Sequence record: PQ724393.1
DNA from: a phage
Length of the DNA: 64,000 nucleotides
Direction: 5' to 3' (one strand)
Positions 37,597 to 38,321 of the stretch are shown piece after piece; position 1 is the first letter of the stretch; every line of letters begins with the position of its first letter. A model generated the notes under the pieces. The model saw nothing but the letters and a program-made list of their open reading frames with translations, did no database searches and was not told the origin of the DNA. Made by a program: the position numbers and the translations under genes.

Positions 37597-37869
37597 TTAT
37601 TTTAGATAAATTGCGTATTTTTTATAACCAGCCGTCTCGTGGCGCAGCCCTTTTTCATTAGCAAAACGTTCAATATTGTTAATTTGATTCTGGTCTAGTT
37701 CTGAAGTATCAAATACAAAAAAGTTTCGCTTATTGCCTAAAGTTACGTGATTAGTCAAATCGATGTTATAGAGATGATTTATATTATCAATCATGGTCTT
37801 AACAGATTTGTTAATTTTTACTTCTTCATTAAGAATAGATTCAGCGATAAATTCTTGATAGGTTTTCAT
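37597..37869 (-). CDS. Internal-protein-like head protein with capsid targeting sequence (90 aa), at the ipI locus
   Basis: N-terminus [11 protein letters not shown] identical to the T4 IP targeting sequence; immediately downstream of 57B as ipI is in T4. Confidence 0.6.
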
Positions 37870-38321
37870 TTTAAATCCTCGGCCCAATCTAGCTTCAAGG
37901 GTTCTTTATATTCTCTGTCTAAAACAACAGGAATCTGGACATCTCCACTAAAGGTAAGAGGCCCTACATTATAAGACAATGTGATATGAGGGGTATAATC
38001 ATCGAAATCGTGCGTAGCACCTAAGGTACGAGCATACTGATGGCGGCATTTAAGATACTCTGAATTGAGGACCAATACCAGGACAGGAGAATCACCATGT
38101 TTCCACACTTCAAGATGTCCTGACGAAGCAACTTCAAAACTTCCGGATGCAACGGTGTATGGAACGTTGACTCTTGAATAGCAGATTGTAGAATGGAATT
38201 TTTCACGAGGAACTGGATTAGGAACCTTTAAAGTGCGCTGAAGGTTTTCCAGCGCATCTAAAGTTAATTCAGAGAATTTTGCAGCAACGTATAGACCTTG
38301 AGCAAAATCTTCGGTTTTCAT
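37866..38321 (-). CDS. 57B: 2H-phosphoesterase, Acb1-like (anti-CBASS nuclease; T4 gene 57B position)
   Basis: 151 aa; two H-x-[ST]-x motifs (KFHSTI, TPHITL); synteny 57A-57B-ipI. Confidence 0.6.

Follow-up and report, generated by a model that had tools for sequence, protein, structure and literature searches.

Gene 57B of phage T4 was identified as Acb1 by Hobbs et al. through activity-guided fractionation, with H44, T46, H113, and T115 forming the tetrad of the enzyme, Y12, W74, F107, and W147 acting as stacking residues, E141 contacting adenine, and a C-terminal lid (residues 145-152) closing over the ligand (PMC9117128). Expression of T4 57B/acb1 is predominantly middle/late (bioRxiv 10.64898/2026.03.30.715471), and type II Panoptes guard systems defend against phages that express Acb1 (PMC13577387).

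Amongst the internal proteins (IPs) of T4, the capsid-targeting sequence (CTS) of IPIII has been defined experimentally, with residues 4 and 7 driving targeting, and residues 8 and 10 driving cleavage by the prohead protease at an I/L-x-E site (PMC9026906). Type IV restriction by GmrS/GmrD is inhibited by IPI/IPI*, which is injected (PMC9026906). The account of Repoila et al. 1994, as summarised in later papers (PMC2839356, PMC4122927), describes a highly variable IP locus in which over 30 IP variants occur alongside PeSL-like elements. Such elements have already been tied to the plasticity of the two IP loci (PMC2839356), and the consensus of the T4/PST PeSL is TTTACW-N17-TAYWAT (PMC4122927).

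In the window, by which we mean the whole 64,000-nucleotide stretch of phage DNA that was analysed, acb1 is followed directly by ip9, and we are confident that the region comprises two known T-even genes placed end to end on the minus strand, with ip9 occupying a generic cassette port.

Results

Genomic context of the acb1/ip9 region

A 1.2-kb query around acb1/ip9 is 100% identical over its full length to fDHCT2 (OR427838.1), a T-even, Dhakavirus-like Escherichia phage of 169 kb from poultry faeces in India, with Dhakavirus phages including IME08, AnYang, IME341, and QL01 matching at 91-97% identity. Every gene of the region is carried on the minus strand, in the order gene 1 (dNMP kinase, PF21448), 57A, acb1, ip9, homologues of trna.4, trna.3, and trna.2, and the tRNA genes (Table 1). 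The gp1-57A-57B-IP-trna.4 synteny of T4 is the same. Gene 57A is the upstream member of the same overlapping gene string as acb1 and ip9, with its TAA stop overlapping the acb1 ATG by one base (TAATG).

Table 1. Coordinates of features in and around the acb1/ip9 region.
Feature	Position	Strand	Basis
Gene 57A, tail-fibre assembly chaperone	38321..38551	-	Pfam PF17594, E = 2.1e-26
acb1 (gene 57B orthologue), 151 aa	37866..38321	-	Pfam, PDB, T4 identity, residue mapping
ATGA overlap of acb1 and ip9	37866..37869	-	Sequence, GenBank CDS coordinates
GAGG, Shine-Dalgarno-like motif (putative function)	37877..37880	-	Read from sequence
CTS, codons 1-10 of ip9	37840..37869	-	10/10 identity to T4 IPIII N-terminus
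Mature Ip9-family protein (residues 11-90) and stop codon	37597..37839	-	phrog_7673, RB15 Ip9, AlphaFold2
T4-type early promoter with overlapping stem-loop (PeSL-like boundary)	37560..37594	-	Pattern match 37565-37594
Exact T4 late-promoter motif TATAAATA, the nearest one upstream (coding strand)	41278..41285	-	Motif scan

Just two tRNA genes, Arg(tct) and Met(cat), are present at 36063-36219 (minus strand), compared with three at the same locus in IME08 and eight in T4, and a segB-like homing endonuclease gene is absent between them. An Rfam scan of the region returned no non-coding RNA besides these two tRNAs. Genes on the opposite strand were considered and rejected, with the plus-strand ORFs over the region being short and without any support.

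Existing annotation of these genes is outdated. Both acb1 and ip9 are recorded as 'hypothetical protein' in fDHCT2 (OR427838.1), Acb1 is labelled 'RNA ligase' in RefSeq Dhakavirus records, and NC_014260.1 (IME08) lacks annotation for the two additional IP genes that separate 57B from Ip9.

The Ip9 family

Profile and sequence matches place the product of the ORF after acb1, a protein of 90 aa with its ATG at 37869, in the Ip9 family of T-even internal proteins, with phrog_7673 ('internal head protein') matched at E = 2.9e-56 over positions 1-90 of 90, and 78% identity to the Ip9 of RB15 (Q38376). The listed ORF runs further upstream, to a TTG at 37887, but annotation places the start at the ATG at 37869, which is also the start conserved across relatives. 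The mature protein (residues 11-90, about 9.4 kDa, pI about 8) is 100% identical in IME08 and QL01, which indicates purifying selection. The gene lies in the variable IP locus between 57B and the trna.4 homologue (phrog_1692), one of two IP loci.

A search of a database of 5.8 billion proteins returned 15 Ip9 clusters, all of them close relatives and all from T-even-like phages. AlphaFold2 predicts a helix-strand-strand-helix-strand-strand domain (pLDDT 80), and the modelled fold is a generic alpha/beta sandwich from which no function can be inferred. Ip9 found no match amongst PDB sequences at E values up to 10 and no family in Pfam, and the term 'Ip9' was not found in the literature searched for its function. 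A PADLOC match (14 bits, E = 0.0087) was regarded as noise. Homology to T4 IPI was likewise rejected, with BLASTP aligning residues 1-31, the propeptide region, only (E = 0.008) and none of the body; as the mature body of Ip9 is unrelated to IPI, the anti-GmrSD function of the latter is not transferable to Ip9.

Homologues of the mature domain (37600-37815, minus strand) that lack a CTS are encoded by a 72-aa ORF of Kagunavirus JSSK01 (L042 2507-2725; 53% identity) and a 74-aa ORF of Seuratvirus KS_S4 (L044 2492-2716; 47% identity), and in Agtrevirus ChubbyThor the domain makes up the last ~80 residues of a protein of 683 aa (L043 692-2743; about 30% identity), itself without a Pfam match. A 535-aa viral protein with the Ip9 domain is also present in BFVD (UPI0018AFBB59). 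The CTS-free homologues suggest a mobile, host-acting domain that was equipped with an injection tag in T-even phages.

The acb1/ip9 overlap is a generic junction

The acb1 TGA (37868-37866) shares two bases with the ip9 ATG (37869-37867), and the GenBank record of fDHCT2 has the same 4-nt overlap (L001, CDS 4198-4470 and 4467-4922), so that the ATGA stop/start overlap described in an earlier, sequence-only reading of the window stands on both the sequence and the deposited coordinates. The last G of a GAGG lies 7 nt upstream of the ip9 ATG, within the final acb1 codons (GCC GAG GAT TTA AAA TGA).

The junction was surveyed in 41 loci, comprising the window, T4, IME08, AnYang, and 37 IMG/VR contigs encoding Acb1 relatives. 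At 20 of the 41, the acb1 stop overlaps, as [A/G]TGA, the start of a CTS-bearing gene, with the bodies of the overlapped genes falling into nine unrelated clusters (clustering threshold 40% identity or more). At the other 21 loci there is no overlap; acb1 ends in TAA or TAG, and a spacer comes next that measures about 75-100 nt or longer and in T4 and AnYang contains an early promoter of the T4 type, with a stem-loop covering its -10 element. The number of IP genes before trna.4 ranges from zero (L014, L017, and L038, where a trna.4-like gene directly follows acb1) up to four or five (L019, L022, and L024). The surveyed locus is the one that Repoila et al. 1994 reported as highly variable. At L005 a GTG replaces the ATG of the overlapped start, and the ATGA persists at L012 and L033 with no long ORF behind it, which may mark decayed slots. 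Given the overlap at 20 of 41 loci, the nine unrelated cargo families, and the other loci without an overlap, the acb1/IP overlap is, as judged from these sequences, a generic docking junction, or cassette port, and not a dedicated pairing.

Origin of the direct acb1/ip9 junction

In IME08, acb1 is followed by three IP genes, namely one of 69 aa with the ATGA overlap, one of 74 aa (ip8 in VR5) that sits behind an early promoter/stem-loop, and ip9. Up to the ATG, the window matches the junction between acb1 and the first IP gene of IME08, with 97.3% identity over acb1, and from codon 4 on it matches IME08 ip9 (96.7%), with the switch point lying within ATGAAAACC|TA. The third codon, ACC, is that of the first IME08 IP gene and the fourth, TAT, that of IME08 ip9, although the third-codon wobble used to place the crossover also varies among relatives (ACT in AnYang). 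The length difference between the window and IME08 is exactly 515 bp. A 141-nt junction query is matched in a single piece in fDHCT2 only, among the matches listed, with the junction halves 440-655 bp apart in the other matches listed.

The simplest reading of these alignments is a recent 515-bp deletion between direct CTS repeats of an IME08-like array (acb1-IPa-ip8-ip9), with parsimony favouring a deletion here over an insertion in the relatives. A deletion between CTS repeats would make the direct coupling of acb1 and ip9 a by-product of cassette loss at a slot that was already overlapped.

A fuller reading, which we offer only tentatively, is that the [A/G]TGA formed by the acb1 stop and the CTS start serves as a fixed, translationally coupled first slot, the cargo of which would be swapped through the 30-nt CTS repeat and would inherit the middle/late expression of acb1, with the Ip9 cargo itself a mobile, host-acting domain of ~72 residues (possibly anti-defence) that stands alone in Kagunavirus and Seuratvirus, is C-terminal in the 683-aa protein of Agtrevirus, and is injected through an added CTS in T-even phages.

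The sequence-only reading had gone further and proposed a compact anti-defence operon. Its components are present, with Acb1, a CTS, and the overlap all found, whilst the operon itself is supported only in part. Such an operon would have two parts, one product acting in the cytoplasm and the other pre-delivered, needed together against the same or complementary defences. The ATGA overlap and the GAGG upstream are real, T4 IPI in the same slot is an injected inhibitor of type IV restriction (PMC9026906), internal proteins with defensive or adaptive functions have been described (PMC2839356), and CTS-free Ip9 homologues in unrelated coliphages lie amongst small accessory ORFs, a setting that would fit a function directed at the host. 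However, the same junction accepts nine unrelated cargo families, 21 of the 41 loci have no overlap, and at least three have no IP gene beside acb1. Furthermore, ip9 is normally the second or third gene of an array behind its own early promoter (IME08, AnYang, VR5), the direct junction occurs in fDHCT2 only, among the matches listed, and looks like a recent deletion, and the body of Ip9 is unrelated to that of IPI, with a fold that gives no function. We therefore consider a dedicated two-part operon unlikely. The term is plausible only loosely, in the sense that this hyperplastic region collects genes for interaction with the host, and any anti-defence role of Ip9 is putative.

The targeting sequence and predicted packaging of Ip9

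The neighbouring protein had been said to bear a targeting sequence, and its first 10 residues are indeed identical, at 10/10 positions, to the N-terminus of T4 IPIII. Across 16 aligned members of the Ip9 family, M1, K2, F7, I8, and E10 of the CTS are invariant, and cleavage by the prohead protease is predicted after E10. From these features, Ip9 would be expected to be packaged in the virion and cleaved.

Alternatively, the 90-aa protein might not be packaged at all, its N-terminus being a remnant of recombination and the protein acting in the producing cell only or having no function. The body domain occurs without a CTS in Kagunavirus, Seuratvirus, and Agtrevirus, and encapsidation is thus not required of it. 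Against this, the CTS matches in full the IPIII sequence that is sufficient experimentally, including residues 4, 7, 8, and 10, it is conserved in all 16 aligned family members, and IME08 and QL01 encode an identical mature protein, making the lack of packaging very unlikely.

A second ORF starting with a CTS lies beyond the tRNA genes (154 aa, MKTYNEFLTEQ..., phrog_2280, 35148-35612, minus strand). The CTS codons are repeated between the two genes (35583-35613 against 37840-37870, 74%), and a copy of the early promoter/stem-loop follows the second IP gene at 34926-34958, 88% identical to 37541-37573. With CTS and promoter/stem-loop repeats at both IP genes, both appear to have the same cassette ends.

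Identification of Acb1

The 151-aa protein was proposed to be an Acb1-like 2H phosphoesterase with two H-x-[ST]-x motifs at the position of gene 57B, and each of these points is borne out. The ORF at 37866-38321 contains exactly two such motifs, HSTI (residue 43) and HITL (residue 112), and the gene order is that of T4. Pfam PF23474 (Anti-CBASS protein Acb1) is matched at 197.9 bits (gathering cut-off 27 bits; E = 8.4e-59) over profile positions 1-144 of 144, and the sequence of PDB 7T26 (Acb1) at E = 1.6e-58 across residues 9-148. These residues align to 7T26 without large gaps at ~65% identity, which is consistent with a 2H phosphoesterase fold. The protein is 85% identical to T4 Acb1, 99% to IME08 57B, and about 65% to the Acb1 of Erwinia phage FBB1, for which a crystal structure exists (7T26/7T27).

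In the alignment to T4 Acb1, both catalytic HxT motifs are matched, with H43/T45 and H112/T114 corresponding to T4 H44/T46 and H113/T115, and the HxT/HxT tetrad is invariant in a four-sequence alignment. The nucleobase-stacking residues Y12, W74, F107, and W147 of T4 are all conserved, as Y11, W73, F106, and W146, and E141, which contacts the adenine N6, is conserved as E140. All nine published T4 residues are thus kept (Y11, H43, T45, W73, F106, H112, T114, E140, and W146), and the C-terminal lid is present with one difference (LDWAEDLK, compared with LDWADDLK in T4).

By every sequence-level criterion that could be tested the protein is a member of the Acb1 family, there is no evidence that contradicts this assignment, and it would be expected to have anti-CBASS enzymatic activity. 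That it is instead a generic 2H/LigT-type RNA ligase or RNA 2',3'-cyclic phosphodiesterase with no anti-CBASS role, as the 'RNA ligase' label of phrog_755, the like naming of 57B in RefSeq relatives, and the 2H fold shared by LigT enzymes (PMC9117128) could suggest, is extremely improbable given the conservation of every base-stacking residue, of the adenine-specific Glu, and of the C-terminal lid, and the end-to-end match to the dedicated Pfam family PF23474. The label in RefSeq and PHROGs is a fold-level name that appears to predate the biochemical characterisation.

Promoters and expression

GTTTACA-N17-TACTAT, overlapped by an inverted repeat, follows immediately on the ip9 stop and precedes the trna.4 homologue. 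This PeSL-like promoter sequence, GTTTACAACGGGCTTTAGTGGTGATACTAT at 37565-37594 with arms GGGCTTTAG and CTATAGCCC, fits the T4/PST PeSL consensus, and would serve trna.4 and more distal genes rather than ip9. Early-promoter matches of the T4 type (GTTTAC-N15-19-TAYWAT) number 13 in the window (0.42 expected), between 6016 and 37594 and all on the minus strand, with those at 13693, 23457, and 25793 having near-identical spacers, suggestive of repeated PeSL-like cassettes.

A dedicated promoter for ip9 or acb1 was sought and rejected, with no exact late (TATAAATA), early, or MotA-box motif found on the coding strand over 37597-41278. Late-like sites there have one mismatch only, such as TATAAAGA at 37910-37903 inside acb1, and a sigma-70 scan was at background (13 sites found, 12.5 expected). 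The exact late motif at 41285-41278 precedes gene 4, no terminator-like sites were found between 41278 and ip9, and this motif is the candidate source of late transcripts running through genes 4, 2, 3, 1, 57A, acb1, and ip9. T4 differs in having an exact late motif, TATAAATA, inside gene 1 and upstream of 57A (L003 9006-9013, minus strand), whereas the equivalent site here is degenerate (AATAAATA at 38913-38906, minus strand), so that the promoter before gene 4 may be what late transcription of 57A, acb1, and ip9 relies on.

The three genes 57A, acb1, and ip9 are probably co-transcribed, and the ATGA together with the GAGG would allow translation of ip9 to be coupled to the termination of acb1. 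The middle/late expression of T4 acb1 fits co-expression with a component of the prohead.

Discussion

Our preferred account of the locus, two known T-even genes with ip9 at a generic cassette port, would operate as follows. The acb1 gene encodes a predicted metal-independent 2H phosphoesterase that would destroy the alarm molecules of CBASS, such that the CBASS effector would never be switched on. The CTS would carry Ip9 into the prohead core, the gp21 prohead protease would remove the CTS after E10, and the 80-residue mature protein would be ejected with the DNA into the next host. The genes 57A, acb1, and ip9 are probably read from one middle/late transcript, with translation of ip9 coupled to the termination of acb1. 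The two ends of the cassette port would be formed by homology in the CTS codons on the 5' side, and in the early promoter/stem-loop after the gene on the 3' side. A 515-bp deletion would have removed two IP genes and their early promoter, placing ip9 in the overlapping slot. The family assignments, conserved residues, and overlap are directly observed, as are the variability of the cassettes and the deletion junction.

Little of this is new. Acb1, the Ip9 family, the PeSL-like boundary, and the arrangement of Acb1 with the IP locus have already been described (PMC9117128, PMC2839356), with Acb1 characterised in 2022 and the variable IP locus by 57B known since 1994, and the exact sequence is that of a deposited genome. 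A small evolutionary point is that close relatives differ by whole IP cassettes through recombination at CTS repeats. The practical value lies in annotation, with both genes called 'hypothetical protein' in GenBank and Acb1 called 'RNA ligase' in RefSeq relatives. The presence of an anti-CBASS nuclease is worth knowing about in phage-therapy candidates of this group, and phages carrying Acb1 would also be targets of type II Panoptes (PMC13577387).

Compared with T4 Acb1 (NP_049750.1) and FBB1 Acb1 (7T26/7T27), the protein described here belongs to the same family and, as in T4, occupies the slot after 57A, with essentially the same length (151 aa against 152 aa). The tetrad, the aromatic stackers, the adenine-contacting Glu, and the C-terminal lid are identical to those of the T4 and FBB1 enzymes, with substitutions outside the active site that are conservative only. 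The genes differ at their 3' ends, with T4 acb1 ending in TAA and followed by a 73-nt spacer with an early promoter and then ipI, whilst here the TGA stop is overlapped by ip9.

The Ip9 proteins of RB15, K3, IME08, and VR5 belong to the same phrog_7673 family, have the same length of 90 aa, and carry the same targeting sequence. In IME08, AnYang, and VR5, however, ip9 closes an IP array of two or three genes at a distance of 300-515 bp from acb1, whereas here it is the sole IP gene of the 57B-adjacent locus and sits in the overlapped first slot.

T4 IPI sits at the same locus as Ip9 (57B to trna.4), is similar to it in size, and likewise has a propeptide of the MKT[YF].EF type at its N-terminus, although the propeptide is of 19 residues in IPI and 10 in Ip9. 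The route of packaging and ejection is presumably shared by the two. To our knowledge, T4 IPI is the only internal protein with a demonstrated anti-restriction role.

The element at 37560-37594 fits the PeSL and PeSL-like cassettes of Repoila et al. 1994, Arbiol et al. 2010, and Comeau et al. 2014; it has a stem-loop over its -10 element and is repeated after the second IP gene. Unlike those cassettes, the 5' boundary here consists of CTS codons fused to the acb1 stop, and the proposed deletion would have used CTS homology rather than PeSL homology.
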